Assembly: GCA_023957315.1 (NCBI GenBank)
Contig: JAMLHE010000018.1
Location: 1,616-65,615, forward strand
DNA: 64,000 bases
Reading direction: 5' to 3'
Source of the DNA: Candidatus Kapaibacterium sp.
GTDB lineage: Bacteria > Bacteroidota > Ignavibacteria > Kapaibacteriales > UBA2268
Shown: positions 11,063 to 64,000 of the stretch, piece by piece
Numbering within the stretch: the stretch's first letter is position 1
Layout of the letters: each line of letters begins with the position of its first letter
Program-made: the position numbers and the translations under genes
The notes under the pieces: generated by a model
The model's database searches: none
What the model was told of the DNA's origin: nothing
Seen by the model: the letters and a program-made list of their open reading frames with translations, nothing else

Positions 11063-11430
11063 TTTTACCCCCACAATGAATAGTACAAAAATTGAGCCAA
11101 AAAAAAATTGCAAATTATTTTCGAAATCTTTGTTACATTTTCCTAAAAATATTGTTATTACATGTATGCAATAATTATTTTGAATATTTGTTTTGTAATA
11201 TTTGTTATGAATTTTAGAATATTTTAAAAGGTAAGCAATGAGAATAATTTTGACCTGTTTTGTTTTGGGATTAGCCGTACTGACAAAGCTTATATCGCAA
11301 CCCCAGTTGCGTATATCATCCCTGATATTGGCGCCCCGGGAATGAATATTTACGTAGAGATAATCGCACCTTATAGGTTTTCAAAACATACGGCAATGAC
11401 GGTTTTCACCTAAACAACCCTGGTGATAAC

Positions 11431-27622: not shown

Positions 27623-27742
27623 GTTGAGGGGAGATTATTTTTATTATTCATTTCAATTTGGTAAGTTTGTATGTGGAGTATTTCTAATAGCAATTTAACA
27701 TATTGTAGTTTTTTGAATAAATCGAATTATAAGGAGAATATT

Positions 27743-28477: not shown

Positions 28478-28534
28478 GAAGCATTTTGGCATATATAAAC
28501 TAATTAACAATAGTTCTTAGGAGACCGAGTAATT

Positions 28535-44654: not shown

Positions 44655-44676
44655 AGTATTTAAAACTTAATTTAAA

Positions 44677-44700
44677 GGGAGCAAATGCTCCCTTTTTTTT
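44677..44700 (+). terminator. pckA Rho-independent terminator
   Basis: GGGAGC-AAAT-GCTCCC followed by T8. Confidence 0.7.
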
Positions 44701-44901: not shown

Positions 44902-47169
44902 ATGAAATTGAGATTTATATTACTGCTGTTTTCAATTTTATTACTCAGTAATCAAATTGTACTATCTCAAGTTCAAGGACAACAAAGGATTGATTCGCTA
45001 TTGAACGAAATTACAAATTTGCGTGATGATTCGACCGGAGTAATATTATTGGCGCAATTGTCCTTCAGTTACCAAGGAATCAACCCTCAAAAAGGTGTTG
45101 ACTATGGAAATATGGCATTCAACTTAGCAAGCAAAATTAAATGGGACAAAGGTATATCGGAAGCATACAATGCCATTGGTACTAACTACATGTCACTTTC
45201 GGAGAATCAAAAAGCATTAGATTATTTCGAGAAATCTATCAAAATCAATATGCGGATTCAATATAAAAGCGGTATTGCTACTAATTACAATAATATTGCC
45301 ATAATGTATTCCAGAGAATATGATTATGATAAATCTCTCGAATATTATGAAAAGGCTTTGAAAATTAATCGAGAATTAGGTAAAAAGAATGCTATTGCCA
45401 GTAATCTATTTAATATTGGAAATATTTATCGAAATAAGTTGAATTATAACAAGGCAATCGAAAATTATTTTCAATCCCTAAAGGTAAATGAAGAAATTGG
45501 CAGAAAAGTCGGCGTAGCTAATAATTTAGAGAATATTGGGTTGATTTATTCTCGTCAGAATATTTTTGATAAAGCGATTGAGTACTATCTAAAAGCTCGA
45601 GATATAAATGCTGAATTAGGTAGAAAGGTTAATTTGGCTAACAACATTAATAATATTGGAGTTATATATACTCACCAAAATGATTACTTGCGAGCAATTG
45701 AATACTTCAACGAATCACTCGAAATTAATTTGCAAATTGGTAATCAGCGTTCAATTGCTAATAATTATAGCAACTTGGGAGATGTTCAGCAAAAAATCGG
45801 CAATTATGCTAAATCTTTAGAATTTTTCCATAAAGCATTAGAAATTAATGAAAAAATTGACAATCCAAACGGTAGAGCCATAAACTATGGTAATATCGGT
45901 ACTACTTATTTGAACCAAATTCTTTTTCCGAGTGGAGACACCAATAATAGAACAATGGTTTTGGATGAAGCTCTGCAAGATACAATTTTGAATAAAAGCT
46001 ATTTTTATCTCAATAAAGCGATTAGTGTTTTGACAGAATTAGACGACATTCACAAATTATCATATTATCACGAAAAATTAGCACTTGTGTGTGAATTATT
46101 AGGTGATTATCAAGCTGCCTACGAATCCTTCAGAAAGCATAAAACTATGCAAGACAGCATATTCTCATCGGAAAATAAAAAAGTATCTGAATCAATTGCA
46201 GAACGTGACAATCAACTAAAAGATGAAAAAATTAAAAGTTTGGAAGCCATTGACCATATCAATGATTTGTACAAATCAATATTGTTTGGCAGCGTATTCT
46301 TCCTCATAATTTTGTTGACAACAATATACGTTAGATTTAGAGAAAAGAAGAAGTTAAGCGAAAAATTAACTTTTCAAAATCAAGAAATTGAGATTCAAAG
46401 AGCAAACCTTGAAGAAATGAACGAGCATGTTTTTTCTTCAATTCGTTATGCTTCTTCTATTCAAAATGCTTTACTGCCTTGGGAAAATACACTTGCGAAT
46501 TCCTTCAAAGAGCACTTTACAATTTACAAACCCAAAGCAATAGTTTCAGGTGATTGTTATTGGTACCAAAGTGTAAATGGAATTAAATTTGTGGCAGCTG
46601 TAGATTGCACCGGTCATGGCGTGCCGGGTTCGATGTTAGCCGTTATTGCTAATACTGCTCTTGATGATGCTGTTGTAAGCAAAAGACTCACCGATACATC
46701 AGAAATATTGCACAATATAAATATGAAAGTTACGGAAGTTCTTCACCAACGAGATTTAGAAAACACATCACGAGATGGTATGGAAATAGCATTGGTAGCA
46801 ATTCATAAGGAAAAATTGCAATTTTCCGGTGCAGGACGACCGCTTTATATTTTCGACAAGGAACTCGAGATTATCAAGACAGACCGCAAAGGCATTGCAG
46901 GTTATTTGAACAATTTAGACTATGAATATAAGTCTCATGTATGTCCGATTCACGATGGGATGAAAATTTATTTAACTACCGATGGTTATGCTGACCAAAT
47001 GAACGAAGAGGGGAAAAAATTTGGTACAAAGAGATTTCTTGAACTATTGAAAAAAATATCAATGAAACCACTCAAAGAACAACATGAGATATTACTTAGC
47101 GAATTAGCTTTTCACCAAGGCAGCAGAAACCAGATTGACGATATTACAATTGTTGGTATTGAATTGTGA
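44902..47169 (+). CDS. Unit 1: signal peptide-TPR-coiled coil-TM-PP2C/SpoIIE-type phosphatase
   Basis: ATG 44902 gives MKLRFILLLFSILLLSNQIVLSQ. About 7 TPR-like 40-aa units, TM SILFGSVFFLIILLTTIYV, then RFREKKKLSE. PP2C series IVSGDCYWY, VDCTGHGVPGS, RDGMEIAL, LTTDGYADQ, QIDDITIVG. A TACATTTG -7-like motif sits at 44859-44866. Confidence 0.85.
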   Translation: MKLRFILLLFSILLLSNQIVLSQVQGQQRIDSLLNEITNLRDDSTGVILLAQLSFSYQGINPQKGVDYGNMAFNLASKIKWDKGISEAYNAIGTNYMSLSENQKALDYFEKSIKINMRIQYKSGIATNYNNIAIMYSREYDYDKSLEYYEKALKINRELGKKNAIASNLFNIGNIYRNKLNYNKAIENYFQSLKVNEEIGRKVGVANNLENIGLIYSRQNIFDKAIEYYLKARDINAELGRKVNLANNINNIGVIYTHQNDYLRAIEYFNESLEINLQIGNQRSIANNYSNLGDVQQKIGNYAKSLEFFHKALEINEKIDNPNGRAINYGNIGTTYLNQILFPSGDTNNRTMVLDEALQDTILNKSYFYLNKAISVLTELDDIHKLSYYHEKLALVCELLGDYQAAYESFRKHKTMQDSIFSSENKKVSESIAERDNQLKDEKIKSLEAIDHINDLYKSILFGSVFFLIILLTTIYVRFREKKKLSEKLTFQNQEIEIQRANLEEMNEHVFSSIRYASSIQNALLPWENTLANSFKEHFTIYKPKAIVSGDCYWYQSVNGIKFVAAVDCTGHGVPGSMLAVIANTALDDAVVSKRLTDTSEILHNINMKVTEVLHQRDLENTSRDGMEIALVAIHKEKLQFSGAGRPLYIFDKELEIIKTDRKGIAGYLNNLDYEYKSHVCPIHDGMKIYLTTDGYADQMNEEGKKFGTKRFLELLKKISMKPLKEQHEILLSELAFHQGSRNQIDDITIVGIEL

Positions 47170-48506: not shown

Positions 48507-48510
48507 ATCT

Positions 48511-49176
48511 ATGGATAATTTGCTAAATCTTCAAAATTTGAATCTACCTCAAATGATTCTATTTATAATTGGATGTATTTTTTGGCTGCTTACATATATA
48601 ATCTATATTAAAAATATCAAATCCAAACAATTTGTAGAGATTCCACTAATAGTTGTCTGCCTGAATATTGCTTGGGAATTCATTTGGAGCTTTCCATTCG
48701 GTAGCTCTGTGGGCGACTATATGGGAACTTCGATTCAAATAGGCTATAGTTTGTGGTTTTTCTTTGATTGTTTCATATTTTGGGGAATTTTGAAATATGG
48801 TTACAAACAGTTCCAAAACCCATTCTTTCGCGATAATTCTAAAATAGTAGCTATCATCACTGTTATTTTTGGATTGATATTTTTCTATACATTTAAAAAT
48901 GCCGGATACGATACAGAAATTGGAACAATTTCAGCATACCTCGACAATATTATGATTTCAGCATTATACATATTCCTATTTGTCAATCATGCCGATAAAT
49001 CGCTCTTCTCATATCATGTAGCTTGGTATAAAATGCTCGGGACTGGTTTAATATCAGTTGCTTTAGTTTGGCATTGGAACGAAAATTATTTTCTGATGTT
49101 CATCACAACGGTAGTTCTGCTGTTAGATATTTATTACGTATTCATTGTGCATAAAAGGAGGAAATCCCTCAAATGA
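48511..49176 (+). CDS. Polytopic integral membrane protein (about 6-7 TM), unknown function
   Basis: 221 aa, highly hydrophobic and aromatic-rich (AWEFIWSFPFG, WFFFDCFIFWG). Starts 4 nt after the previous stop. Its stop overlaps the next start (ATGA at 49173-49176). Confidence 0.6.
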   Translation: MDNLLNLQNLNLPQMILFIIGCIFWLLTYIIYIKNIKSKQFVEIPLIVVCLNIAWEFIWSFPFGSSVGDYMGTSIQIGYSLWFFFDCFIFWGILKYGYKQFQNPFFRDNSKIVAIITVIFGLIFFYTFKNAGYDTEIGTISAYLDNIMISALYIFLFVNHADKSLFSYHVAWYKMLGTGLISVALVWHWNENYFLMFITTVVLLLDIYYVFIVHKRRKSLK

Positions 49177-50600
49177 ACAAGAGTTTCATAAAGAATATTA
49201 CCACAAAAGGCGTAAAGCCCGGAATGACAGCTCATGAAGAAAAGGGTGTAATTATAACAAATTACATACTTTTACTGGCTTCCGGTGTCGCCTTTTTGCG
49301 TATCTTTTTGTTTTTATATACAAGTGATTTCTATCACAGTTTGATTTCAATAGCTTCAACTGTGCTATTTCTATTCGCATATTATATGAATACAAAGCAG
49401 TATTATGATTTTGCTAAATTTTTTCTAATGGTATCAGGTACTGCAGGTCCATTAATGAAGGAATTAATGTCCGGCGGAACAGGAAATCAACACTTTCTCA
49501 CTATAGCAAGTTTTGGTGTAGTTTTTTTATTGTTCAGTTTAAAAGATAAAGTCAAACTGATAATAGCACTTATGCTGCCTACATCCAGTATTATCATCAC
49601 AATATTTTTCCCCAATATCATTTCCGAACCAATAATCTTATCTCCCGAAACGATGAAAATGGAGAAATTTTTTGGAGTAATGTCGGCAAGTATTATTATT
49701 GTGTTTGTCATATGGTATTTCGTCAAACAAAGCGCCAATAGCGAATTAAAGTTAATAAGTTCAAACGATTTACTACAGAAATTCAATAATGAAATTTCTG
49801 AGCAAAAAGCATTGATTGAAGAGCAACATAGGGCACTCACGGCTTCAATTCAATATGCGAAAGATATTCAGTCCGTCATATTACCTTCAAAAACAGAACT
49901 CAATGCCTTGTTCCCCGACAATATTATATTCTACAAACCAAAAGATGTCGTTTCCGGTGATTTTTATTGGTTTGCCGAAACCCGAGATTGGAGATTTATC
50001 GCAGTGGTTGATTGTACAGGGCATGGCGTTCCCGGAGCATTCATGTCAATGATTGGCAATGATTTGCTTAACCAAATTGTAATTTTGCAAGGAATCACAA
50101 AGCCTTCTGTTATATTGCGAATGTTGCACGAAGGAGTCCGAACTACTCTAAAGCAAGATGTAGAAGATTCTCGGCAAATGGATGGCATGGAGGTTTGCTT
50201 GCTTGCTTTCGATAAAACGCAAAAGAAAGTTGTCTTTTCAGGTGCAAAAAGACCATTGTGGATAATCCGATTCGAAAATGGGAAAAAGAAATTTGTAGAA
50301 CTTAAGGGTGACAAACACTCCATCGGGGGACGCCAGAAAGAGGAAGAGCGGACTTTCACAGATTACAATCTCGATTTTGAAGACGAAAGTCTTATGCTCT
50401 ATCTCACAACTGACGGCTTCGCCGACCAAATGAACGAATCCGGAAAGAAATACGGTTCTAAACGTTTCACTGAGCTTTTAAATTCAATCGCTGATAATCC
50501 ATTATCAGAACAATATACAATCTTGAGTAATGAACTCGCCGCTCACCAAGGTGACAAGCACCAAATTGATGATATAACAATAATAGGGGTGAGGATATGA
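49173..50600 (+). CDS. Unit 2: polytopic-membrane N-terminal domain fused to a PP2C/SpoIIE-type phosphatase (no TPR)
   Basis: 475 aa, about 5-6 TM helices, coiled linker, IQYAKDIQSVILP. Then VVSGDFYWF, VDCTGHGVPGA, MDGMEV, LTTDGFADQ, QIDDITIIGVRI. Confidence 0.8.
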   Translation: MNKSFIKNITTKGVKPGMTAHEEKGVIITNYILLLASGVAFLRIFLFLYTSDFYHSLISIASTVLFLFAYYMNTKQYYDFAKFFLMVSGTAGPLMKELMSGGTGNQHFLTIASFGVVFLLFSLKDKVKLIIALMLPTSSIIITIFFPNIISEPIILSPETMKMEKFFGVMSASIIIVFVIWYFVKQSANSELKLISSNDLLQKFNNEISEQKALIEEQHRALTASIQYAKDIQSVILPSKTELNALFPDNIIFYKPKDVVSGDFYWFAETRDWRFIAVVDCTGHGVPGAFMSMIGNDLLNQIVILQGITKPSVILRMLHEGVRTTLKQDVEDSRQMDGMEVCLLAFDKTQKKVVFSGAKRPLWIIRFENGKKKFVELKGDKHSIGGRQKEEERTFTDYNLDFEDESLMLYLTTDGFADQMNESGKKYGSKRFTELLNSIADNPLSEQYTILSNELAAHQGDKHQIDDITIIGVRI

Positions 50601-52744
50601 GAAATTTGATAATATTTTTCGTAGGATTCTTTTCTTTAGTAAATATAAGCTTAGCCCAACTTGAGGGTCAAGCGAGAATAGATTCACTCCTTAAAGAGCT
50701 ACCTAAAATAAAGGAAGATACAAATGCGGTGAATTTACTTTCAGAGCTATCATTTTTATACTATTCAATTAATCCGGATAAAGGTATTGAATTCGGAAAT
50801 AAAGGATTAAAAATTTCCGGAAAAATTAATTGGAAGGAAGGAGAAGCAAAGTGTTATAGTTCGTTAGGTGTGAATTATGTAGGAGGGAAATCTGACCCTT
50901 CAAGAGCACTTGAATATTTCACTATAGCTCTCAAAATTGATGAAAAATTTGGCAATATAGCCGGTATTGCCAGACATCTGGGAAATATTGGAATAATTTT
51001 TGAGAATCAGTCTGACTATCTAAAAGCTCTTGAATATTATCAAAAGGCTCTTAAAATTGATGAAAAATTAAATAATAGAGCCGGTATTGCCAGACATCTA
51101 GGAAATATTGGACTTATTTATGATTATCAAGCCGACTATCCAAAAGCTCTTGAATATCATTATAAGTCACTCGACATCGAAAAAGAGATGGGGAATAAGC
51201 CTGGGATTTCAATGAGCTTTGCAAATATTGGAATCATATATAAGAATCAATCCGATTACCCAAAAGCCATTGAGTATTTCCATAAAGCCCTTAAAATGGA
51301 TGATGAAATTGCCAATAAATCTGGAATTGCATCAAATCTTGATAACTTAGGAACAATTTATACATACCAATTAGATTACCCCAAAGCACTCGAATATTAT
51401 CATAAAGCACTAAAAATCAACGAAGAGATAGGTAATAAATTTAGAATAGCTGTAAATCTTGAAAATATTGGGAGCGTTTATTTCTTTTTATCCCAAGATT
51501 CAACATTTGAAAATAGCGAACCTATAACACAAGTATTTCTAAATAGTGATTTTTATTTAAATAAATCCATTGAATTATCGGAAAAAGCTCTTAAGATTTA
51601 TATTGAAATTGGTGCAATTTACAACTATTCAAATTTGTTACATTCACTCTCCGAATCATACAAATTTAAAGGCAACTATAAAAAAGCTTTCGAAGCATTT
51701 AAAGAATATAAAGCATTACAAGATTCAGTTTTTTCTATGGATAAGCAAAAGGAAATAGCTAATCTCGAAGCGATTCGCGAAAATGAATTAAAAGATGCTG
51801 AAATAACAATTTTAAATACGCAGAAGAAGGCGCAACAGTTTCAATCATACTTGCTTGGCGGTGGAGCGATAGTTCTTTTAGGGGCTTTTTGGTAATGCCT
51901 TCCTACGTTTTCGCGAAAAGAAAAATTGAGCGACAAACTTGCAATTCAAAATAATGAAATTGAAAATCAGAAATTATTAGTAGAGGGAAAAAAGTAGAGG
52001 AAATCTACGCATCAATTAGGTATGCATCAACAATTCAGAATGCGATACTGCCTTGGGACGCTACATTAGGCAAGGCTTTTAGTGATGTCATGGTTTTCTT
52101 CAAGCCCAAAGATATTGTCTCAGGTGATTCGTATTGGTTCAAAGAAGTGGACGGAGTCAAGTTTTGAGGCGGTCGTAAGGTGCACGGGGCACGGCATTCC
52201 GGGAGCGATGCTAACTGTAATTGCCTCTACAGCCTTGGATGATGCCGTTCTTGGCAAGAGATTAAGCGACCCGGTAGAAATACTTACATATATAAATGAA
52301 AAAGTAACAGAAGTATTAAATCAAAAATTAGCTGAAAACAATATTCGCGACGGAATGGAAGTCGCACTACTCGCCATTCATCAAGATAAGATTAAGTTTT
52401 CAGGTGCCGGTCGACCTTTGTATCTCAAGAATGGCACATTGGAAATCATCAAAACCGACAAACGGGGCATAGCCGGAAGCACAAAGAATGATGAATATCA
52501 ATTCAATTCTGTTGAAATCGAAAAATCAGAAAATATTACACTTTACCTAACTACGGACGGATTTGCCGACCAAATGAACGAAGACGGCAAAAAATTCAGC
52601 ACCCGCCGCTTTTTGGCATTACTCGAATCAATTGCCGATAAGCCACTATCGGAACAATATAAAATATTAAACAATGAACTCGCAGCTCATCAAGGCGAAA
52701 AACACCAAATTGACGACATAACAATAATAGGGGTAAGGATATGA
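50597..52744 (+). pseudogene. Unit 3: TPR-TM-PP2C paralog disrupted by clustered indels (or a local consensus error)
   Basis: The ORF 50597-51895 (TPR part) stops inside the TM helix (..LLGAFW*). The PP2C part resumes as ORF 52082-52744. Aligned by eye to unit 5 (56295-56607), the 51886-52180 stretch shows at least 5 indels plus substitutions. The flanks are identical to paralogs. Confidence 0.7.
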
Positions 52745-55002
52745 GAAATTTGATTATATTTTTCGTAATGTTTTTTGTAGCAGTAAACATAAGCTTTGCA
52801 CAACTTCAGGGACAAGCGAAAATAGATTCGCTGAAAGCGGAGTTGCCAAAATCAAAGCAGGACACTAACCATGTCAACTTGCTCGCGGATTTATCTTTTT
52901 TATACAATTCAATTAACCCTGATGAAGGAATTAAATATGGCGAGCAAGGACTAAAACTTGCTGAAAAGATTGGTTGGAAAGAAGGTATAGAAAGGTGTTA
53001 TAGCTCATTAGGTGATAGTTTTATGGATAAATCCGACTACACTATAGCTCTTGGATATTATCACAAAGCACTAAAAATTAATGAAGAATTGGGGAATGAA
53101 CAAAATGTCGCAGGTTTCCTTAATAATATTGGACTTGCTTATTATTACCAATCCGATTATCTCAAATCTCTTGAATCTTTTCACAAAGCACTTAAAATGT
53201 TTGAAGAATTGGAGAATAAATCTGGAGTTTCACTAATTCATGGAAATATTGGAATGATTTATTATTCTCAATCCGACTATCCAAAAGCTATTGAGTATTA
53301 TCACAAAGCACTTAAAATTCATGAAGAAACAGAAAATAAACGAGGAATTGCGGGCACTCTTCACAATATGGGAATGATTTATTCTGACCAATCTGACGGA
53401 TATAGAGCATTAGAGTATTACCTCAAAGCACTTAAAATTAATGAAGAAATAGACAATAAAAATTGGATTGCATATAATCTTGAAGCTATTGGAGTTGTTT
53501 ATAATTCACAATCTGACTACCCAAAAGCTATAGAGTATTATCATAAAGCACTTGAAATTAATGAAGAACTGGGTAATAAATATGGGATTCAAAGTAATCA
53601 TTTAAATATTGGTAATATTTTTATGACGCAATCCGACTACCCAAAAGCACTTGAGTTTTTTCATAAAGCAATTGAAATTAACGAAGAAATAGGACGTATA
53701 TCAGGAATTGCTTTAGGTTTGGGACAAATTGGAGGACTGTATTTAAAAATATCTAAAGATTCAAATATGGTGAACAGTGAAAACAATTTGCAATTAATGC
53801 TAAATAAAGAGATTAATTTGAATAAAGCTATTGAATATTCTCAACAAGCCATTAATCTATACCAAGAAATCGGTGAATTGTATTATCAATTATTTATTTT
53901 AAATAACCTCTCCGAAGCTTATGAACTAAAAGGTGATTACAAAAAAGCATTTGAGGCATTCAAAGAATTTAAAACCTTGCAAGATTCTGTATTCTCGATG
54001 GATAAGCAAAAGGAAATTGCAAATCTTGATGCAAAACGGGAAAATGAGCTTAAAGATGCTGAAATCATCATTTTAAATACAGAGAAAAAAGCACAACAAT
54101 TTCAATCGTATTTGTTGGGAGGCGGAGTAATCGTTCTTCTGGGAGCTTTTGGAATTGCCTTCCTACGTTTTCGAGAAAAGAAAAAATTGAGTGATAAACT
54201 TACAATTCAAAATAATGAAATTGAAAATCAGAAATTATTAGTAGAGGAGAAAAGCGAAGAAATTTATGCATCGATTCGGTACGCTTCTACAATCCAAAAT
54301 GCGATATTGCCTTGGGACGCTACATTAGGCAAGGCTTTTAGTGATGTCATGGTTTTCTTCAAGCCCAAAGATATTGTCTCAGGTGATTCGTATTGGTTCA
54401 AAGAAGTGGACGGAGTCAAGTTTTTGGCGGTCGTAGATTGCACGGGGCACGGCATTCCCGGAGCAATGCTGACTGTTATTGCCTCTACAGCCTTGGATGA
54501 TGCGGTTCTTGGCAAAAGATTAAGCGACCCGGCTGAAATTCTTACATATATAAATGAAAAAGTTACAGACGTGCTCAATCAGCGTTTATCAGAAAATCAA
54601 ACACGCGACGGAATGGAAGTCGCACTACTCGCCATTCATCAAGATAAGATTAAGTTTTCAGGTGCCGGTCGACCGCTCTACTTAAAAAATGGCACATTAG
54701 AAATTATCAAAACCGACAAACGGGGCATAGCCGGTAGCACAAAGAATGATGAATATCAATTCAATTCTGTTGAAATCGAAAAATCAGAAAATATTACACT
54801 CTACCTCACCACCGACGGTTTTGCCGACCAGATGAACGAAGACGGCAAAAAGTTCAGCACCCGCCGCTTTTTGGCATTACTGGAATCAATTGCCGAAAAT
54901 CCTCTAAAAGAACAATATAAAAGATTAAATAACGAACTGGCAGCTCATCAAGGTGAAAAACACCAAATTGATGATATAACAATAATAGGGGTACGGTTAT
55001 GA
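52741..55002 (+). CDS. Unit 4: signal peptide-TPR-coiled coil-TM-PP2C/SpoIIE-type phosphatase
   Basis: 753 aa. MRNLIIFFVMFFVAVNISFAQ, about 7 TPR units (SDYPKA(I/L)EY(Y/F)HKAL(K/E)INEE(L/I)GN.), TM YLLGGGVIVLLGAFGIAFL, RFREKKKLSD, full PP2C motif series. ATGA overlaps at both ends. Confidence 0.88.
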   Translation: MRNLIIFFVMFFVAVNISFAQLQGQAKIDSLKAELPKSKQDTNHVNLLADLSFLYNSINPDEGIKYGEQGLKLAEKIGWKEGIERCYSSLGDSFMDKSDYTIALGYYHKALKINEELGNEQNVAGFLNNIGLAYYYQSDYLKSLESFHKALKMFEELENKSGVSLIHGNIGMIYYSQSDYPKAIEYYHKALKIHEETENKRGIAGTLHNMGMIYSDQSDGYRALEYYLKALKINEEIDNKNWIAYNLEAIGVVYNSQSDYPKAIEYYHKALEINEELGNKYGIQSNHLNIGNIFMTQSDYPKALEFFHKAIEINEEIGRISGIALGLGQIGGLYLKISKDSNMVNSENNLQLMLNKEINLNKAIEYSQQAINLYQEIGELYYQLFILNNLSEAYELKGDYKKAFEAFKEFKTLQDSVFSMDKQKEIANLDAKRENELKDAEIIILNTEKKAQQFQSYLLGGGVIVLLGAFGIAFLRFREKKKLSDKLTIQNNEIENQKLLVEEKSEEIYASIRYASTIQNAILPWDATLGKAFSDVMVFFKPKDIVSGDSYWFKEVDGVKFLAVVDCTGHGIPGAMLTVIASTALDDAVLGKRLSDPAEILTYINEKVTDVLNQRLSENQTRDGMEVALLAIHQDKIKFSGAGRPLYLKNGTLEIIKTDKRGIAGSTKNDEYQFNSVEIEKSENITLYLTTDGFADQMNEDGKKFSTRRFLALLESIAENPLKEQYKRLNNELAAHQGEKHQIDDITIIGVRL

Positions 55003-57146
55003 GAATATTAATATTAATTCTAACACTTGTATTTATGATAAATACAGCAAAATCTCAATTGAGTGGACGATCGAAAATTGATTCGCTTCTTAAGGAATTA
55101 CCAAAAGGAAAGCAAGACACAAATCATGTGAAATTGCTCGCTGATTTATCTTTCGAATATTATCGAATTGACCCAGACACAGGAATTGAGTATGGGGAAA
55201 AGGGCTTAGAACTCGCAAAAGAAATAGACTGGAAAGAAGGCGAAGCATACTGCTATAATTCCCTTGGAACTAATAATGTTGGAAAATCTGATTACCCGAA
55301 AGCATTAGAAATTTTTCATAAATCTTTGAAAATTAATGAAGAATTGGGAAAGAAATCAAACATAGCTAATAATCTTGGAAATATGGGAGTTATTTACAGC
55401 TCTCAATCAGATTACCCAAAAGCATTAGAATATTTTCATAAAGCACTGAAAATTAATGAAGAATTGGGAAGGAAACCAAATATAGCTAATAATCTTGGTA
55501 ATATTGGTAATATTTACTCCGAACAATCAGATTACCCGAAAGCATTAGAATATTTACATAAAGCTCTTAAAATTAATGAAGAGATGGGAAATAAATCCGG
55601 TATAGCTTCAAATCTTGCTAATATTGGTAATATTTACTCCGAACAATCAGATTACCCGAAAGCATTAGAATATTATCATAAAGCTCTGAAAATTAATGAA
55701 GAGTTGGGGAATAAATCACGAATTGCAAATAATTTAATAAATATGGGTTCATTATTCACATCAATGGGTGAACTTGATAAATCATTAGATTATTTAAAAC
55801 GAGGATTAAAATTAAATATTGAAATTCAGAATCATAGGCAGACTGCTTATACTTTAAATATGCTTGCCGGTAATTATATAAATCAAGCAAAAATGTACGA
55901 TTCTGTAAGAACAATAGGAGAATCGAAAGATTATTTAGTTGACAGTAAAATAGAAAACAGCTATCAGTCAGCATTGCAATTTGCGAAAGAAGCAGAACAT
56001 CTTGCCGACAGTATTGGACTTGCTGAATTGCAACCTAAAATATTTCATAATTTATATGAGGCATATAAAAAATTAAATGAACCGGCAAAAGCTCTTGAAT
56101 ATCACGAAAAATATACTATTATGAATGATTCCATTTTCAGCATGGACAAATCCAAAGAAATTGCTAATCTCGAAGCGATTCGCGAAAATGAATTAAAAGA
56201 TGCTGAAATAACAATTTTAAATACGCAGAAGAAGGCGCAACAGTTTCAATCATACTTGCTTGGCGGTGGAGCGATAGTTCTTTTAGGGGCTTTTGGTATT
56301 GCCTTCCTACGTTTTCGCGAAAAGAAAAAATTGAGCGACAAACTTGCAATTCAAAATAATGAAATTGAAAATCAGAAATTATTAGTAGAGGAAAAAAGTG
56401 AGGAAATCTACGCATCAATTAGGTATGCATCAACAATTCAGAATGCGATACTGCCGTGGGACGCTACATTAGGCAAGGCTTTTAGTGATGTCATGGTTTT
56501 CTTCAAGCCCAAAGATATTGTCTCAGGTGATTCGTATTGGTTCAAAGAAGTGGACGGAGTCAAGTTTTTGGCGGTCGTAGATTGCACGGGGCACGGCATT
56601 CCGGGAGCGATGCTAACTGTAATTGCATCTACAGCTCTGGATGATGCGGTTCTTGGCAAAAGATTAAGCGACCCGGCTGAAATTCTTACATATATTAATG
56701 AAAAAGTAACAGACGTGCTCAATCAACGTTTATCAGAAAATCAAACACGCGACGGAATGGAAGTAGCGCTAATTGCTATTCATCAAGATAAAATTCAGTT
56801 CTCCGGCGCCGGGCGACCTTTGTATCTCAAGAATGGCACATTGGAAATAATCAAAACCGACAAACGGGGCATAGCCGGTAGCACAAAGAATGATGAATAT
56901 CAATTCAATTCTATTGAAATCGAAAAATCAGAAAATATTACACTTTACCTAACTACGGACGGATTTGCCGACCAGATGAACGAAGACGGCAAAAAATTCA
57001 GCACGCGCCGCTTTTTGGCATTACTGGAATCAATTGCCGAAAATCCTCTAAAAGAACAATATAAAATATTAAATAACGAACTCGCAGCTCATCAAGGTGA
57101 CAAGCACCAAATTGATGATATAACAATAATAGGAGTGAGGATATGA
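54999..57146 (+). CDS. Unit 5: signal peptide-TPR-coiled coil-TM-PP2C/SpoIIE-type phosphatase
   Basis: 715 aa, same architecture. ATGA overlaps at both ends. Contains near-perfect 120-bp internal TPR repeats. Confidence 0.88.
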   Translation: MRILILILTLVFMINTAKSQLSGRSKIDSLLKELPKGKQDTNHVKLLADLSFEYYRIDPDTGIEYGEKGLELAKEIDWKEGEAYCYNSLGTNNVGKSDYPKALEIFHKSLKINEELGKKSNIANNLGNMGVIYSSQSDYPKALEYFHKALKINEELGRKPNIANNLGNIGNIYSEQSDYPKALEYLHKALKINEEMGNKSGIASNLANIGNIYSEQSDYPKALEYYHKALKINEELGNKSRIANNLINMGSLFTSMGELDKSLDYLKRGLKLNIEIQNHRQTAYTLNMLAGNYINQAKMYDSVRTIGESKDYLVDSKIENSYQSALQFAKEAEHLADSIGLAELQPKIFHNLYEAYKKLNEPAKALEYHEKYTIMNDSIFSMDKSKEIANLEAIRENELKDAEITILNTQKKAQQFQSYLLGGGAIVLLGAFGIAFLRFREKKKLSDKLAIQNNEIENQKLLVEEKSEEIYASIRYASTIQNAILPWDATLGKAFSDVMVFFKPKDIVSGDSYWFKEVDGVKFLAVVDCTGHGIPGAMLTVIASTALDDAVLGKRLSDPAEILTYINEKVTDVLNQRLSENQTRDGMEVALIAIHQDKIQFSGAGRPLYLKNGTLEIIKTDKRGIAGSTKNDEYQFNSIEIEKSENITLYLTTDGFADQMNEDGKKFSTRRFLALLESIAENPLKEQYKILNNELAAHQGDKHQIDDITIIGVRI

Positions 57147-59779
57147 GAAAATTGATAATACTATCCGTAATGTTTTGTGCAGTAGTAAATATTAGCTTAG
57201 CCCAGTTGCGTGGTCAGGCAAGAATTGACTCCCTTATTATGGTACTACCCAAAATGAAGGAGGATACTAATGCAGTGAATTTATTGGCTGATTTATCATT
57301 TTTATACAATTCAATTAATCCTGATGAAGGCATTAAATATGGCGAGCTAGGACTAAAACTTGCTGAAAAACTAAAATGGAAATTTGGTAAAGCTAACTGT
57401 TACAACTCTATTGGGCTAAATTATGCCGAGCTCAACGATTACCACAAAGCGTTGGATTTTTACCACAAAGCACTGGAATTGAATGAGGAGATTGATTATT
57501 TACAACAAGCTGCTGGAAATTTAAACAATATTGGAATAGTTTACAGATACTTATCGGATTACTTAAAAGCGCTCGAATATTATCAAAAAGCTCTTAAAAT
57601 TTATGAAGTGCTGGGTAGTAAATCAGGTGTAGCTAGTAATCTTGGTAATATTGGTAATATTTACTCCGGTCAATCGGATTACCCTAAAGCATTAGAATTT
57701 CATTATAAAGCTCTTAAAATTAATGAGGAATTAGGTAGAAAAACTAATATTGCTAATAATCTTGGCAATATTGGAACTGTTTACTCCATTCAAGCGAACT
57801 ACCCTAAAGCATTAGAATATATTTATAAAGCTCTTAAAATTAATGAGGAATTAGGTAGAAAAACTAATATTTCAAATAATCTTTCTAATATTGGTAAGAT
57901 TTATTTACGTCAATCTGATTTCCCCAAAGCACTTGATTATTATCATAAATCGCTTAAAATTGATGAAGAATTAGGAAGTAAATCCCGCATAGCTTCAAAC
58001 CTTTTGAGAATTGGTATGACTTATTTCTATCAATCTGATTACCCCCAAGCACTTGAATATTGTCATAAAGCACTAAAAATTAATGAGGAATTAGGTGTGA
58101 AAATTAATATGGCACGTGATTTCGGAAATATTGGTATGATTTATGCATCTCAATTGCACTACTCAAAAGCATTAGACTTTTATCATAATGCTCTTAAAAT
58201 TCATGAGGAGCTGGGAGATAAAGTGAGCATAGCTTTTAATCTTGGAAATATTGGGGTTTTATATTACAGTTTATCTCAAGATACGGTTTTATCAAAAATA
58301 AGTGAAGGTACCAATCTTTTAAGTCTCAATAGAGAACTAAATCTCAATAAATCGATTGAATACTCTCTTAAATCTATTGATTTACTCAAAGAAATTGGCG
58401 AATCTGACAATCAATCAAAAACTTTAAAAAGATTATCTGATGCTTACACAGATAAAGGCGATTACAAAAAAGCATTCGAAGCATACAAAGACTATAAAGA
58501 GCTGCGAGATTCAATTTTTTCTATAGATAAGCAAAAAGAATTGGCAAATTTAGAATCCAAAAGAGAGTTAGAAATAAAGCAGAAAGAAAATCTATTGTTG
58601 ATTAAAGATAACCAATTGTTCAATGCAGAATTAATTCAAAAGAATCAAAAAATTAATTTAGCTGAAAAAGAAAAAGAACTCCAGCATCTTGCATTTTTGA
58701 AAGAACAAGCCGAGAGGCAAGAGAAAGAGCAACTCTTGACATTGACTGAGACTCAAATTCAACTTCAGTCAACTCAAATCGAGTCTTTGGATAAAGAAAA
58801 AGAGATACAAAATGCAGAGCTAAAAGCAAAAAATTTACAACGAAACTTTTTTATTGCAGGCGTAATTGTTTTTATAATTTTATTCTTGTTTGCATTTATT
58901 CGTTTCCGTGAAAAGAAAAAGCTGAGCGATGAGCTTGCACTTCAAAACGCTGAAATTGAAAAACAAAAGACTATTGTTGAATCTCAAAAAGCAATTGTCG
59001 AGGAGCAAAAGTTCATACTTCAAGAAAAAAATGACCATATTTATTCTTCTGTCCAATACGCCGCTACAATTCAACAGGCGATTTTACCATGGGACAGTAT
59101 AATTAATGCTGCTTTCTCAGATATTTTAATTTTCTACAAACCGAAAGATATTGTTTCCGGTGATTCATATTGGTTCAAAGAAGTGGACGGAGTCAAGTTC
59201 CTTGCGGTCATAGATTGCACAGGGCACGGCATTCCCGGAGCAATGCTGACTGTAATTGCATCTACAGCTCTGGATGATGCGGTTCTTGGCAAAAGATTAA
59301 GCGACCCGGCAGAAATTCTTTCCTATATAAATGAAAAAGTAACAGAAGTATTAAATCAAAGATTAGCTGAAAACAATATCCGTGACGGAATGGAAGTCGC
59401 ACTACTCGCCATTCATAAAGATAAGATTAAGTTTTCAGGTGCCGGGCGACCGCTCTACCTCAAAAATGACACACTCGAAATCATCAAAACCGACAAACGT
59501 GGCATTGCAGGCAGTACAAAAAATGATTATTACCAATTCAACTCAATTGAAATCGAAAGAACCGAGGGCAAAACTCTTTACCTAACAACTGACGGCTTCG
59601 CCGACCAGATGAACGAAGACGGCAAAAAATTCAGCACCCGCCGCTTTGTGGCATTACTTGAATCAATTTCCGATAAGCCAATTCCCGAGCAACACGAATT
59701 GCTCGAAACAGAATTTAACAATCACCGCGACAACCGAGAGCAAATTGATGATATAACGATAATAGGGGTGAGGATATGA
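57143..59779 (+). CDS. Unit 6: signal peptide-TPR-extended coiled coil-TM-PP2C/SpoIIE-type phosphatase
   Basis: 878 aa. Extra ~100-aa coiled-coil segment (KRELEIKQKENLLLIKDNQ...EKEIQNAELKAKNLQ) before TM FFIAGVIVFIILFLFAFI, then RFREKKKLSD and the PP2C series. Confidence 0.88.
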   Translation: MRKLIILSVMFCAVVNISLAQLRGQARIDSLIMVLPKMKEDTNAVNLLADLSFLYNSINPDEGIKYGELGLKLAEKLKWKFGKANCYNSIGLNYAELNDYHKALDFYHKALELNEEIDYLQQAAGNLNNIGIVYRYLSDYLKALEYYQKALKIYEVLGSKSGVASNLGNIGNIYSGQSDYPKALEFHYKALKINEELGRKTNIANNLGNIGTVYSIQANYPKALEYIYKALKINEELGRKTNISNNLSNIGKIYLRQSDFPKALDYYHKSLKIDEELGSKSRIASNLLRIGMTYFYQSDYPQALEYCHKALKINEELGVKINMARDFGNIGMIYASQLHYSKALDFYHNALKIHEELGDKVSIAFNLGNIGVLYYSLSQDTVLSKISEGTNLLSLNRELNLNKSIEYSLKSIDLLKEIGESDNQSKTLKRLSDAYTDKGDYKKAFEAYKDYKELRDSIFSIDKQKELANLESKRELEIKQKENLLLIKDNQLFNAELIQKNQKINLAEKEKELQHLAFLKEQAERQEKEQLLTLTETQIQLQSTQIESLDKEKEIQNAELKAKNLQRNFFIAGVIVFIILFLFAFIRFREKKKLSDELALQNAEIEKQKTIVESQKAIVEEQKFILQEKNDHIYSSVQYAATIQQAILPWDSIINAAFSDILIFYKPKDIVSGDSYWFKEVDGVKFLAVIDCTGHGIPGAMLTVIASTALDDAVLGKRLSDPAEILSYINEKVTEVLNQRLAENNIRDGMEVALLAIHKDKIKFSGAGRPLYLKNDTLEIIKTDKRGIAGSTKNDYYQFNSIEIERTEGKTLYLTTDGFADQMNEDGKKFSTRRFVALLESISDKPIPEQHELLETEFNNHRDNREQIDDITIIGVRI

Positions 59780-62700
59780 GAAAAGCAATTATTACCCTCG
59801 CTATTTTATTGTCCATCTCTTTTTTGGGGATGACGGGCGCAAACGCCCAAAACCTAGACTCACTCTTAGGTGTTTGGAACAACAAATCCCAACCCGACTC
59901 CAACCGCGTTACCGCTTACAACGATTACATTTGGGACGGCTACCTCTTTTCCAAGCCCGACTCGGCCACAATACTAGCCGAGGCTCTGCACGCTTATGCA
60001 AAAAAGCACAGATACCCAAATGCATCAGCCCAAGGCTATAACCTTCAAGGCGCCGCAAACTACCAACAAGGCAATTACCCCAGCGCCTTGGAAAACTACG
60101 AAAAGGCTCGAGTAATAAACGAAGAACTAGGTAATAAGCGGTGGTTGGCGATGAACCTGAACAATATTGGCCTCATTTACAATATCCAAGCCGATTACCC
60201 CCGCGCCTTGGAATACTTTGAAAAGAGTCTAGCGATTGATGAAGAAAGCGGTGATAAAAACGGCATCGCAGGGAGCCTGATGAATATTGGCTTGATTTAC
60301 CAAAGCCTAGGCGATTACCCACGCGCCTTGGAATACTATGAAAAGAGTCTGGCGATTCAGGAAGAAATCGGGGATAAAAAAGGCATCGCAGGTAGCCTGA
60401 ATAATATCGGCATGATTTACAATATCCAAGCCGATTACCCCCGCGCCTTGGAATACTACGAAAAGGCTCGAGTATTAAACGAAGAACTTGGTAATAAGCA
60501 GTGGTTGTCGTACAACCTTGGCAATATTGGCGACATTTACTCTACCCAAGCCGATTACCCCCGCTCTTTGGAATACTATGAAAAGAGTCTGGCGATTCAG
60601 GAAGAAATGGGGGATAAAAACGGCATCGCAATTAGCCTGGGTAGTATTGGCATGCTCTACCAAAAACAAGGCAAGAACACCCTCGCGCTAAACTATTGCC
60701 AAAAAGCCCTAACACTTGCCGAAGAAACTGGTGCTTTAGAATGGCAAAAAAACGCCTGCCAATGCCTGTACACTAGCTACAAAGCCATGGGCAACAGCGA
60801 TAAAGCCCTGCAATATTATGAGCTTATGATTGTGGCACGCGACAGCATCTTTAATGAAGAGAATACCAAAAAGCTGGTGCAAATAGATATGCAATATGAA
60901 TTTAACCGCAAAGAAGCTGCCGCCAAAGCCGAGCAAGACAAAAAAGATGCAGTAGCTGCACAAGAAATGCAACGGCAAAAACTGGTGCGCAATGGCTTTA
61001 TAGCAGGTGCTATTGTATTTATAATATTATTCCTGATTGTATTTGTAAGGTTTCGCGAAAAGAAAAAATTGAGCGACAAACTTGCAATTCAAAATAATGA
61101 AATTGAAAATCAGAAATTATTAGTAGAGGAAAAAAGTGAGGAAATCTACGCATCAATTAGGTATGCATCAACAATTCAGAATGCGATACTGCCGTGGGAC
61201 GCTACATTAGGCAAGGCTTTTAGTGATGTCATGGTTTTCTTCAAGCCCAAAGATATTGTTTCCGGAGATTCGTATTGGTTCAAGGAAGTGGACGGAGTGA
61301 AGTTTCTGGCAGTCATAGATTGCACAGGGCATGGTATCCCCGGAGCAATGCTAACTGTAATTGCCTCTACAGCCTTGGATGATGCCGTTCTTGGCAAGAG
61401 ATTAAGCGACCCGGCAGAAATACTTACATATATAAATGAAAAAGTAACAGAAGTATTAAATCAAAAATTAGCTGAAAACAATATTCGCGACGGAATGGAA
61501 GTCGCACTACTCGCCATTCATCAAGATAAGATTAAGTTTTCAGGTGCCGGTCGACCTTTGTATCTCAAGAATGGCACATTGGAAATCATCAAAACCGACA
61601 AACGGGGCATAGCCGGAAGCACAAAGAATGATGAATATCAATTCAATTCTGTTGAAATCGAAAAATCAGAAAATATTACACTCTACCTCACCACCGACGG
61701 TTTTGCTGACCAGATGAACGAAGACGGCAAAAAATTCAGCACCCGTCGCTTTTTGGCATTACTGGAATCAATTGCCGAAAATCCTCTAAAAGAACAATAT
61801 AAAAGATTAAATAACGAACTGGCAGCTCATCAAGGTGACAAGCACCAAATTGATGATATAACAATAATGAGTGAGGATATGAGAAAATTGATAATACTAT
61901 CCGTAATGTTTTGTGCAGTAGTAAACATCAGCTTTGCTCAACTTCAAGGGCAGGCGAAAATTGATTCGCTCAAAGCGAAACTGCCAAAAGCTAAACAAGA
62001 CACAAATGCTGTGAATTTGCTTGAGCAACTATCTTTTGAATTATATTCTATCGACCCGGACAAAGGAATAGAATATGGTTTGCAAGGAGTGGAACTCGCG
62101 AAAAATTTAGGCTGGAAGGAAGGTGAAGCAAATTGTTATAATTCTTTGGGTACAAATTATGATGAAAAATCCGACTACCCAAAAGCATTAGAATATTATC
62201 ATAAAGCTTTGAAAATTTATGAGGAATTGGGAAAAAAATCTGGAGAAGCAGCAAATCTCGGAAATATTGGTCTTTTATATTCTTCTCAATCCGACTACCC
62301 GAAAGCATTAGAATATTATCATAAAGCTCTGAAAATCAGTGAAGAGTTAGGAGATAAATCTGGAATAGGAAGACAGCTTGGAAATATTGGCATTATTTAC
62401 GAAAATAAATCCGACTACCCGAAAGCATTGGAGTATTATTTGAAAGCTTTGAAAATTAATGAAGAATTGGGAAGGAAATCTGGTGTTGCTACAAATCTTG
62501 GAAATATTGGGATTATTTATGCAAATCAATCGGACTACCCCAAAGCACTTGAATATTTTCATAATGCCCTTAAAATTAATGAAGAGCTGGTAAATAAATC
62601 TGGCGTTGCCAGGCATCTTGGAAATATTGGTCTTTTATATTCTTCTCAATCCGACTACCCGAAAGCTTTAGAATATTTTCATAAAGCTCTTAAAATTAAT

Positions 62701-64000
62701 CAAGAACTGGGAAACAAAAGAGTCGAAGCGTATAATCTTGGTAATATGGGAGAATTATATTATAAGTTATCCCAAGATACGGTATTATCTCAAATAAGTG
62801 AAAGCACAATTCTTGTAAGTCTAAATAAAGAAATAAATCTCAATAGAGCGATAGATTACACACTCGAAGCGATTAAAATATTTGAAGAAATTGGGGAATT
62901 ACATATTAGATCAACTTATTTAAAAAACCTCTCAGAAGCATATAAACAAAAAGGCAATTCAGATAAAGCATTTGAGGCATTACAAGAACACATGAAACTC
63001 AAAGACTCAGTGTTTAATATGGATAAACAGAAAGAAATTGCAAATCTTGAAGCAAAACGAGAAAATGAACTTAAAGATGCCGAAATTGTAATTCTTCAGA
63101 CCGAGAAAAAAGCACAGCAGTTTCAATCTTATCTGCTTGGTGGTGGTGTGATTGTGCTTTTTGGTGCTTTTGCCCTTGCCTTTATTCGTTTTAGGGAGAA
63201 GAGAAAGCTAAGCGATGAGCTTGCACTTCAAAACGCTGAAATTGAAAAGCAGAAGACTATTGTCGAATCTCAAAAAGCAATTGTCGAGGAGCAAAAGTTC
63301 ATACTTCAAGAAAAAAATGACCATATTTATTCTTCTGTCCAATACGCCGCTACAATTCAACAGGCGATTTTACCATGGGACAGTATAATCAATGCTGCTT
63401 TCTCAGATATTTTAATTTTCTACAAACCGAAAGATATTGTTTCAGGTGATTCATATTGGTTTAAAGAGGTTGAAGGTATCAAGTTTTTGGCAGCTATTGA
63501 TTGTACAGGTCATGGCATTCCAGGAGCGATGCTGACTGTGATTGCCTCAACTGCTCTTGATGATGCCGTTCTTGGCAAGAGATTAAGCGACCCGGCAGAA
63601 ATACTTACATATATAAATGAAAAAGTAACAGAAGTATTAAATCAAAAATTAGCTGAAAACAATATTCGCGACGGAATGGAAGTCGCACTACTCTGCATTC
63701 ATCAAGATAAGATTAAGTTTTCAGGTGCCGGTCGACCTTTGTATCTCAAGAATGGCACATTGGAAATCATCAAAACCGACAAACGGGGCATAGCCGGTAG
63801 CACAAAGAATGATGAATATCAATTCAATTCTGTTGAAATCGAAAAATCAGAAAATATTACACTCTACCTCACCACCGACGGTTTTGCCGACCAGATGAAC
63901 GAAGACGGCAAAAAGTTCAGCACCCGCCGCTTTTTGGCATTACTTGAATCAATTGCCGAAAATCCTCTAAAAGAACAATATAAAAGATTAAATAACGAAC
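59776..64000 (+). CDS. Units 7+8 read as one open frame: two complete TPR-TM-PP2C modules fused in frame by a 2-nt deletion at the junction; continues past the window end
   Basis: Absent from the ORF track because there is no stop before the window end. I translated 59776-64000 manually in one frame and saw no stop. Unit 7 = 59776-61878 (MRKAIITLAILLSISFLGMTGANAQ...QIDDITIMSED). Unit 8 starts at the in-frame ATG 61879 (MRKLIILSVMFCAVVNISFAQ...) and could also be translated on its own. Confidence 0.75.
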   Translation, partial: MRKAIITLAILLSISFLGMTGANAQNLDSLLGVWNNKSQPDSNRVTAYNDYIWDGYLFSKPDSATILAEALHAYAKKHRYPNASAQGYNLQGAANYQQGNYPSALENYEKARVINEELGNKRWLAMNLNNIGLIYNIQADYPRALEYFEKSLAIDEESGDKNGIAGSLMNIGLIYQSLGDYPRALEYYEKSLAIQEEIGDKKGIAGSLNNIGMIYNIQADYPRALEYYEKARVLNEELGNKQWLSYNLGNIGDIYSTQADYPRSLEYYEKSLAIQEEMGDKNGIAISLGSIGMLYQKQGKNTLALNYCQKALTLAEETGALEWQKNACQCLYTSYKAMGNSDKALQYYELMIVARDSIFNEENTKKLVQIDMQYEFNRKEAAAKAEQDKKDAVAAQEMQRQKLVRNGFIAGAIVFIILFLIVFVRFREKKKLSDKLAIQNNEIENQKLLVEEKSEEIYASIRYASTIQNAILPWDATLGKAFSDVMVFFKPKDIVSGDSYWFKEVDGVKFLAVIDCTGHGIPGAMLTVIASTALDDAVLGKRLSDPAEILTYINEKVTEVLNQKLAENNIRDGMEVALLAIHQDKIKFSGAGRPLYLKNGTLEIIKTDKRGIAGSTKNDEYQFNSVEIEKSENITLYLTTDGFADQMNEDGKKFSTRRFLALLESIAENPLKEQYKRLNNELAAHQGDKHQIDDITIMSEDMRKLIILSVMFCAVVNISFAQLQGQAKIDSLKAKLPKAKQDTNAVNLLEQLSFELYSIDPDKGIEYGLQGVELAKNLGWKEGEANCYNSLGTNYDEKSDYPKALEYYHKALKIYEELGKKSGEAANLGNIGLLYSSQSDYPKALEYYHKALKISEELGDKSGIGRQLGNIGIIYENKSDYPKALEYYLKALKINEELGRKSGVATNLGNIGIIYANQSDYPKALEYFHNALKINEELVNKSGVARHLGNIGLLYSSQSDYPKALEYFHKALKINQELGNKRVEAYNLGNMGELYYKLSQDTVLSQISESTILVSLNKEINLNRAIDYTLEAIKIFEEIGELHIRSTYLKNLSEAYKQKGNSDKAFEALQEHMKLKDSVFNMDKQKEIANLEAKRENELKDAEIVILQTEKKAQQFQSYLLGGGVIVLFGAFALAFIRFREKRKLSDELALQNAEIEKQKTIVESQKAIVEEQKFILQEKNDHIYSSVQYAATIQQAILPWDSIINAAFSDILIFYKPKDIVSGDSYWFKEVEGIKFLAAIDCTGHGIPGAMLTVIASTALDDAVLGKRLSDPAEILTYINEKVTEVLNQKLAENNIRDGMEVALLCIHQDKIKFSGAGRPLYLKNGTLEIIKTDKRGIAGSTKNDEYQFNSVEIEKSENITLYLTTDGFADQMNEDGKKFSTRRFLALLESIAENPLKEQYKRLNNE

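Follow-up and report, generated by a model that had tools for sequence, protein, structure and literature searches.

The tufA and tufB genes are a prokaryotic case of concerted evolution by interparalog gene conversion. Concerted evolution of this kind is well established in prokaryotes, as shown by a survey (PMC6053082) and by work on the PE/PPE genes of Mycobacterium tuberculosis and other loci (PMC13061034, PMC12046097). The chemoreceptors Tlp2, Tlp3, and Tlp4 of Campylobacter jejuni are paralogues with identical signalling domains but only ~30% identity between their periplasmic sensors (PMC9769880); the tlp genes reportedly recombine, turn into pseudogenes, and vary in copy number (PMC6433261). 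Evolution experiments with Escherichia coli demonstrated that recombination between tandem or nearby paralogues yields hybrid genes, often with the intervening DNA deleted (PMC13626634). Here, we describe a tandem array of predicted sensor-phosphatase genes in a 64,000-nt stretch of DNA (the window), which belongs to a metagenome contig of 67,112 bp with relatives among Ignavibacteriae HGW-1 and Candidatus Kapaibacterium metagenome-assembled genomes. The final ~19 kb of the window (44.9–64 kb) contains eight paralogous genes on the forward strand, U1 to U8. Their output halves, and only these, have probably undergone domain-restricted concerted evolution by short-tract interparalog gene conversion.

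Mosaic structure of the output halves

According to the translations, a unit consists of a signal peptide, a TPR sensor, a coiled-coil stalk, a single transmembrane (TM) helix, the motif RFREKKKLS, a second coiled coil, and a SpoIIE/PP2C domain. The TPR units are 40 residues long, with a DNA period of 120 nt. The units that concern us most are U3 (50597..52744), U4 (52741..55002; intact, 753 aa), U5 (54999..57146; intact, 715 aa), U6 (57143..59779; intact, 878 aa, with a long coiled-coil stalk), U7 (59776..61878), and U8 (61879..64000, cut by the window end). The RFREKKKLS codons occupy 56310..56336 in U5 and are located at 46333 in U1, ~51906 in U3, 54166 in U4, 58901 in U6, 61048 in U7, and 63187 in U8. 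Among the five genomes compared, the motif is nearly invariant in all units carrying it, with a single K-to-R change in U8 and in Kb, a unit of another array (see below).

A sequence-only reading of this DNA had reported long identical or near-identical blocks shared by different units. These blocks were tested by direct comparison, by MAFFT alignment of all units, and by a maximal-segment scan for pairwise segments of ≥96% identity. The block at 52208-52540 in U3 differs from 61348-61680 in U7 by 1 mismatch in 333 nt, precisely as reported, and belongs to a tract within PP2C that matches at 334 of 335 positions (52208..52542 = 61348-61682). In U8, 63559-63861 shows 3 mismatches to U7 or 4 to U3 in 303 nt, where about 3 had been counted, and 63559-63863 matches the tract at 301 of 305 positions. 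Two blocks described as exact were indeed so: 56313..56521 in U5 and 61051-61259 in U7 (209/209, starting 3 nt into the RFREKKKLS codons), and 51758-51889 in U3 and 56163-56294 in U5 (132/132). The latter lies in a longer U3/U5 tract (51758..52165 = 56163-56568; 400/409) that starts in the stalk, ~150 nt upstream of the TM helix. Between U6 and U8, 58925-59157 and 63211-63443 differ at 4 rather than about 5 of 233 positions, within a linker tract of 246/251 (58925..59175 = 63211-63461). A total of 20 segments were found by the scan, and the blocks proved longer than had been seen by eye. Others include a U4/U8 tract in the 3′ part of PP2C (54706..54937 = 63769-64000; 231/232), a U7/U8 tract (61378-61819; 435/442), and a U4/U5 segment (298/308). 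Exact tracts ranged from 132 to 267 nt in length. The repetition of the U5/U6 junction at the U7/U8 junction was not found in the ungapped register proposed (17/80 matches), but it holds with a 2-nt gap, the U5 stop/U6 start tract 57084..57189 being otherwise identical to 61822-61925.

Alignment and nearest-paralogue painting demonstrated that the 3′ half of each unit is a patchwork of changing nearest paralogues, as had been proposed. From its RFREKKKLS codons onward, U7 is identical first to U5, then to U3, and then to U4. The output half of U4 appears converted by U5, U7, and U8, that of U5 is common to U3, U4, and U7, and the 3′ half of U3, whose frame is broken, is still 97–100% identical to U5 and U7. 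The TPR modules are far more divergent, also in agreement with the earlier description, with nucleotide identities of 47–70% for the N-parts vs. 78–94% for the C-parts. A plain two-unit duplication, in which U5-U6 gave rise to U7-U8, was considered and rejected, because the U5/U7 identity alternates between 79% and 100% and the sensor halves of U6 and U8 are only 63–84% identical.

The mosaic was also evaluated statistically. The pairwise homoplasy index (PHI) test, a check that the sequence-only reading had called for, gave a value of 0.207 for the 3′ half of U3–U8 compared to a permutation mean of 0.417 (z = -20), and 0 of 2000 permutations was as low. A GENECONV-like permutation of polymorphic sites returned P < 1e-4 for the longest concordant run in 10 of 15 pairs. 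The Hudson–Kaplan (four-gamete) Rm was at least 14 in the cytoplasmic part, a figure inflated by homoplasy.

By painting and the segment list, tract edges are spread over at least eight positions. Three tracts have their 5′ edge at or just past the RFREKKKLS codons, namely, the U5/U7 tract (56313/61051, 3 nt in), the U3/U7 tract (16 columns later), and the U6/U8 tract (58925/63211). The U3/U5 edge (51758/56163) lies 150 nt upstream in the stalk, and the remainder are inside PP2C. The idea that edges tend to fall at RFREKKKLS and at the ATGA junctions was therefore correct in part: 3 of the 20 segments start 3–27 columns past the start of the motif codons (2 of them within 20), and 3 of the 20 end at the stop or ATGA, but the others are at six or more positions in PP2C or the stalk. 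As a preferred breakpoint in general, RFREKKKLS was not supported, since most edges lie elsewhere and the motif is simply where homology starts for units with an unrelated stalk and TM helix. Upstream of the motif, the stalk/TM regions of U6 and U7 are <50% identical to those of their tract partners; their edge falls at RFREKKKLS because homology begins there, whereas the related stalks of U3 and U5 share tracts running through the motif.

Input and output modules have been re-assorted, as the sequence-only reading had suggested. U3, U4, U5, and U8 have a TM helix of lineage A (FQSYLLGGG...), whereas U6, U7, and D3 have lineage B. For the linker, U3, U4, U5, and U7 belong to lineage I; U6, U8, E7, and D3 belong to lineage II, distinguished by an insert of 14 residues. 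All four combinations of TM and linker lineages occur in the window, including lineage B with linker II (+14 aa) in U6 and lineage A with linker II in U8. These results indicate real recombination between the TM helix and the linker.

Orthologues, paralogues, and synonymous sites

A related array, the E array, is located on L056, a 55-kb contig of the HGW-1 population assembled with MEGAHIT. The gene order of L056 is U1, mpaB, Pyr4, U2, and then five TPR units (E3–E7). Collinearity of this contig with the window runs from U1 as far as 850 nt into U3, at 86.6% nucleotide identity. Orthologues and paralogues were compared in sliding 150-nt windows. The flanks, U1, and U2 are 85–95% identical to L056, and their 150-nt windows were always nearest to their own orthologue (124-147/150). 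U1 (44902..47169; Pfam TPR and SpoIIE), a solitary TPR-TM-RFREKKKLS-PP2C paralogue that lies outside the conversion, is a strict orthologue of E1, with 88–89% nucleotide identity in both halves.

Sensor segments of three array units also have orthologues in L056, at about 80–98% identity. U4 pairs with E3 over 53002-53977 (128-139/150), the stalk region of U5 with E5 over 55702-56077 (121-147/150), and U7 with the head of E5 over 59752-60050 (118-132/150). From approximately the TM helix onward, however, nearly every 150-nt window in U3–U8 has its closest match within its own array (139-150/150), with the E units matching less well (113-140/150), and identities in the C-half are 93–100% to a paralogue in the window vs. 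79–92% to any E unit. The sensor orthologues in L056 indicate that the unit lineages are older than the species split. Lineages that predate the split, together with 3′ halves that are more alike than orthologues, demonstrate concerted evolution.

Neighbour-joining trees with bootstrap were constructed for four consecutive segments. The stalk and TM tree grouped (U6,U7) at 100% and (U3,U5) at 97%; the linker tree grouped (U6,U8) at 99% and (U5,U7) at 76%; and the tree of the first part of PP2C grouped (U3,U7) at 88% and (U4,U5) at 87%, the latter against their orthologues. Segment-wise trees, which had been named as a test of the recombination proposal, were thus incongruent at 76–100% bootstrap. 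The (E3,U8) clade at 100% in the last segment was discounted as a probable artefact of the truncated U8 and the aberrant 3′ end of E3. Re-assortment was evident in the E array as well: E5 is chimeric, joining the N-terminal ~120 residues of U7 to a body with the U5 TPRs and stalk, and its G + C content at third codon positions (GC3) drops from 0.52 to 0.27 at the joint between head (L056 10792-11091) and body.

Mosaicism is likewise present in the E array (PHI z = -11), whose exact runs do not exceed 88 nt. The K array, in the single-contig 4.5-Mb genome L002, gave a weak mosaic signal (PHI z = -2.3), and its proteins Kb, Kc, and Kd are 85–92% identical in their C-parts and 29–33% identical in their N-parts. 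At syntenic loci, U2 is followed by one TPR unit (L013), four (L002), five (L056), or, in the window, at least six. Such differences are expected from unequal crossing-over between direct repeats.

At fourfold-degenerate sites, the identity between units is 11–46% in the N-part, which is saturated, and 58–77% on average in the C-part, and inside exact tracts all such sites are identical. The orthologue baseline from U1 and E1 is 62–64%. This pattern can be explained neither by protein constraint nor by recent duplication with fast sensor divergence.

Base composition also varies along the units. The GC3 of U7 is 0.53–0.55 in the sensor (59776-61050), 0.43 in the stalk/TM region, and 0.37 in the output half, whereas the other sensor halves have 0.23–0.25 and ordinary window genes 0.32–0.50. 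The G + C-rich sensor module of U7 looks compositionally foreign, yet it is older than the split from the L056 lineage. A metagenome scan detected homologues of this sensor half in other metagenomes at ≤50% identity, with outputs that were varied or not recognisable. The C-halves of the homogenised units (50597-64000) have a GC3 of 0.35–0.39 vs. 0.29 for that of the non-converted U1 (46333-47169), with sensor halves at 0.23–0.29. This contrast faintly suggests that gene conversion is GC-biased or that mutational and selective regimes differ. Many 150-nt windows in the TPRs of U5 (55250-55830) and U7 (60050-60730) matched best, at up to 132/150, with a different 120-nt TPR unit from within the gene itself, indicating recent intragenic repeat duplication or homogenisation within the sensor domains.

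Proposed mechanism and alternative explanations

Mosaic tracts, incongruent trees, homogenised synonymous sites, and paralogues closer than orthologues all uphold the proposal that recombination among paralogues homogenises the output half. The description of this recombination as ongoing was overstated, since it was derived solely from zero-difference tracts. The process might operate as follows. Units arranged as direct repeats would misalign, and general homologous recombination, presumably of the RecA type, would repeatedly copy short tracts of ~70–450 nt from unit to unit in what is probably non-reciprocal gene conversion. Because conversion needs homology, it would be confined to the conserved cytoplasmic half and would halt where homology ends, which is at TM/RFREKKKLS for unrelated stalks and farther upstream for related ones. 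Sensor halves, too diverged to recombine, would go on diverging while the output halves evolve in concert within the genome. Occasional crossovers or longer tracts would pair one sensor with another output and alter the number of units. Unequal recombination adds module re-assortment and copy-number change to the conversion.

Several points weigh against this interpretation. The window comes from a metagenome contig, and short-read assemblers have difficulty with exact repeats of 132–267 nt; near-identity (~98%) could have been turned into 100%, or units mis-joined, by graph simplification or faulty polishing. Exact-match searches with the U4, U5, and PEPCK proteins retrieved no public contig. 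Two frame defects sit in repeated sequence. In U3, at least four small indels within 280 nt (51886-52166) and three in-frame stops are flanked by sequence 97–100% identical to U5 and U7; U3 is nevertheless as long as U5 (2148 nt, divisible by 3), and natural decay would not usually give a ratio of indels to substitutions close to 1. A 2-nt deletion in U7 (61860-61890), the sole difference from the U5/U6 junction, abolishes the stop and brings U7 into frame with U8, so that 1408 codons stay open up to the window end and the U8 signal peptide comes to lie mid-polypeptide. The U7-U8 frame may be genuine, as a fusion or an inactivated gene, or may stem from misassembly of the repeat, and the defects of both units may be real decay or assembly and polishing noise. 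Three assemblies of the E population (L057, L058, and L059), identical over 14–22 kb otherwise, differ solely by indels or an N-gap in conserved PP2C repeats: a 14-nt indel and a 10-N gap at the 3′ end of E3 (L057/L058 ~3033-3057) and a 10-nt indel in E6 (L059 ~2100). These differences alter the called proteins (728 vs. 748 aa and 675 vs. 607 + 68 aa, respectively). The three assemblies were probably built on the same or related data, and they give one arrangement and no strain-level cassette order. Some local detail in the window may therefore be artefactual, and the sequences do not show which unit gave or received a tract, whether transfer was one-way, or when the events took place.

An assembler that collapsed or switched paths among near-identical repeats or co-occurring strains could have made the mosaic as a whole, or its perfect identities and pairings. 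The metagenomic source, exact repeats of up to 267 nt, the defects within repeats of U3 and U7, and the disagreement of related-population assemblies in PP2C repeats only are all compatible with such an origin. We nevertheless consider it unlikely, for four reasons. Many short tracts with varied partners are present rather than one or two path switches. The likeness of paralogues over orthologues spans the whole C-half, beyond the exact blocks. The separate MEGAHIT assembly of another species, the E array, is similarly mosaic with exact runs below k = 141, and the protein contrast recurs among Kb, Kc, and Kd in a single-contig genome. Assembly problems limit trust in single tract boundaries and exact sensor-output pairings but not in the overall pattern, which stands on the many tracts, the orthologue comparison, and the independent arrays.

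A more speculative possibility, to which we attach little probability, is that the array serves as a permanent library for mixing and matching. In such a library, conversion would be frequent, even defective units such as U3 would act as donors, and the RFREKKKLS island would be the joint; new sensor-phosphatase combinations would arise on population time scales, linkers I and II (+14 aa in II) would serve as separate dimerisation or output channels, and the whole would be a signalling analogue of pilS/vls variation. Even less probable is programmed variation, i.e., an actively shuffled cassette library, shufflon-like or pilS/vls-like, with RFREKKKLS as a dedicated joint. Such a system would account for the nearly invariant RFREKKKLS-coding island where two tract families begin, for the fresh tracts still shared by the defective U3, and for all four TM and linker combinations. 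However, no inverted repeats above chance were found in the array (only imperfect ones of 18–29 nt, at chance level), and the units are direct repeats. No recombinase, retron, or diversity-generating retroelement gene is nearby, the sole integrase-family gene being Xer-like and ~34 kb away (10166-11113). The units are complete, on the same strand, and start-codon-bearing, with no silent cassettes; most tract edges lie away from the motif; and the related-population array has one arrangement in its three, probably not independent, assemblies. The cassette shuffling offered by the sequence-only reading was not supported, on the same grounds; the units are also translationally coupled.

A further account, with a probability equally slight and already contradicted by the data, dispenses with conversion altogether and supposes very recent lineage-specific duplications, sensors that diverged under positive selection, and an enzyme half held by purifying selection; tandem arrays do grow by duplication, unit number does vary among relatives, and the PP2C domain is under functional constraint, but the saturated fourfold sites of the sensor halves (against the orthologue baseline) indicate two halves of very different age, the sensor orthologues of U4, U5, and U7 place the units before a split that their nearly identical C-halves do not reflect, and the bootstrap-supported switches of nearest neighbour within the C-half are incompatible with a tree-like history. 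Selection alone is ruled out by the synonymous-site evidence.

Output domain, genomic setting, and known parallels

In U1 and U4–U8, Pfam analysis identified SpoIIE/PP2C preceded by several TPR families, and in U2 SpoIIE preceded by a multi-TM N-terminus. PF07228 scored 64–73 bits in U1, U2, U4, U5, and U6 (curated Pfam cutoff, 25) and 122.5 bits, in two matched stretches, in the fused U7-U8 open reading frame (ORF). The cytoplasmic linker and PP2C align end to end with SiaA-PP2C of Pseudomonas aeruginosa (PDB 6K4E; E = 8e-40), and the match covers the acidic metal-binding motifs as well as the N-terminal helices. In SiaA, a phosphatase of the partner-switch type whose substrate is phospho-SiaC, these helices mediate dimerisation (PMC7647112). 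The motifs DCTGHG, TDGFADQ, and QIDDITI line up with the matching SiaA motifs and are present in U1, U2, and U4–U7; U8 carries DCTGHG and TDGFADQ, the window ending before QIDDITI, and in U3 DCTGHG is replaced by RCTGHG, which changes the catalytic Asp. The U units are thus predicted to be SiaA/RsbU-like sensor phosphatases. No cognate STAS/SiaC-like substrate or RsbW/SiaB-like kinase was detected by Pfam among window ORFs of ≥150 aa, nor was a candidate seen on inspection of four intergenic ORFs; the partner genes may be located elsewhere in the genome. The many sensors presumably feed one shared downstream partner or heterodimerise via the linker/PP2C dimer interface.

U2 (49173..50600), which is orthologue-like to E2 and resembles the other units only over its last ~150 nt, opens the run of genes coupled by ATGA stop/start overlaps, which are found at each junction from the Pyr4-like gene through U7. 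Upstream of U2 are genes for an mpaB-like oxygenase (47343-48506; PF09995) and a Pyr4-like membrane terpene cyclase (48511-49176; PF25129), neither of which is related to the U units. These two genes and U2 occur in the same order, with overlapping or nearly abutting stops and starts, in the window (47343-50600), L056 (3132-6388), L002 (4007-7343), and L013 (10215-13534), and the trio may be a conserved functional module at the array head. A scan for promoters and terminators was uninformative, with counts at the level of shuffled sequence; the sole clear terminator follows PEPCK (44674-44695). The rest of the window contains ordinary chromosomal genes, such as those for RecO, LigA, LeuRS, CysRS, PurH, PEPCK, and T9SS cargo proteins. 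At 27671-29341, there are two adjoining 268-residue ORFs, of which the second is a REase-ARP/PD-(D/E)XK nuclease and the first has no Pfam match. In addition, both ends of the 4.5-Mb Kapaibacterium contig JAVSMQ010000001.1 (L002 and L004) share genes, an untrimmed circular overlap that falls inside its TPR-PP2C array and in which one copy is partly N-masked.

The array is a clean natural example of how a sensor repertoire can be enlarged while a common output is retained. Conversion keeps the enzyme and dimerisation half uniform, presumably matched to one shared partner, and leaves the TPR sensor halves free to diverge, to gain or lose repeats, and to be re-paired. It follows for practice that PP2C-domain trees of such arrays record conversion history and not gene history, and that short-read assemblies of such loci are fragile, as L057, L058, and L059 illustrate.

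A literature search on TPR-SpoIIE arrays in this phylum found nothing specific, but the kind of evolution is already familiar and no new mechanism is revealed. Like SiaA and the RsbU/SpoIIE-type phosphatases, the array units are membrane-anchored sensor phosphatases, a role assigned to them from sequence. Their sensor is a periplasmic TPR array, whereas SiaA has an N-terminal membrane sensor region, and, unlike partner-switching systems, the window holds no SiaB/SiaC- or RsbW/RsbV-like partner gene. Tlp2, Tlp3, and Tlp4 represent the closest described phenomenon, combining uniform cytoplasmic output with divergent periplasmic sensors as in the U units. However, the Tlp output is a methyl-accepting chemotaxis protein (MCP) signalling domain rather than a PP2C phosphatase, and the tlp genes are dispersed, whereas the U units form an ATGA-coupled tandem array. 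In contrast to tlp, conversion is directly evident here, from the numerous short mosaic tracts and from the comparison with orthologues. The hybrid genes of the E. coli experiments are comparable to E5, with its U7 head and U5 body, and to the differences in unit number, although they were single laboratory events and those of the array are deduced from natural genomes. With prokaryotic concerted evolution in general, the array shares paralogues that are more alike within a genome than orthologues are, short homogenised tracts, and dependence on homology. It differs in that the process is limited to one half of a multidomain signalling gene, present in at least six tandem copies in an uncultured Kapabacteria/Ignavibacteria-like host.

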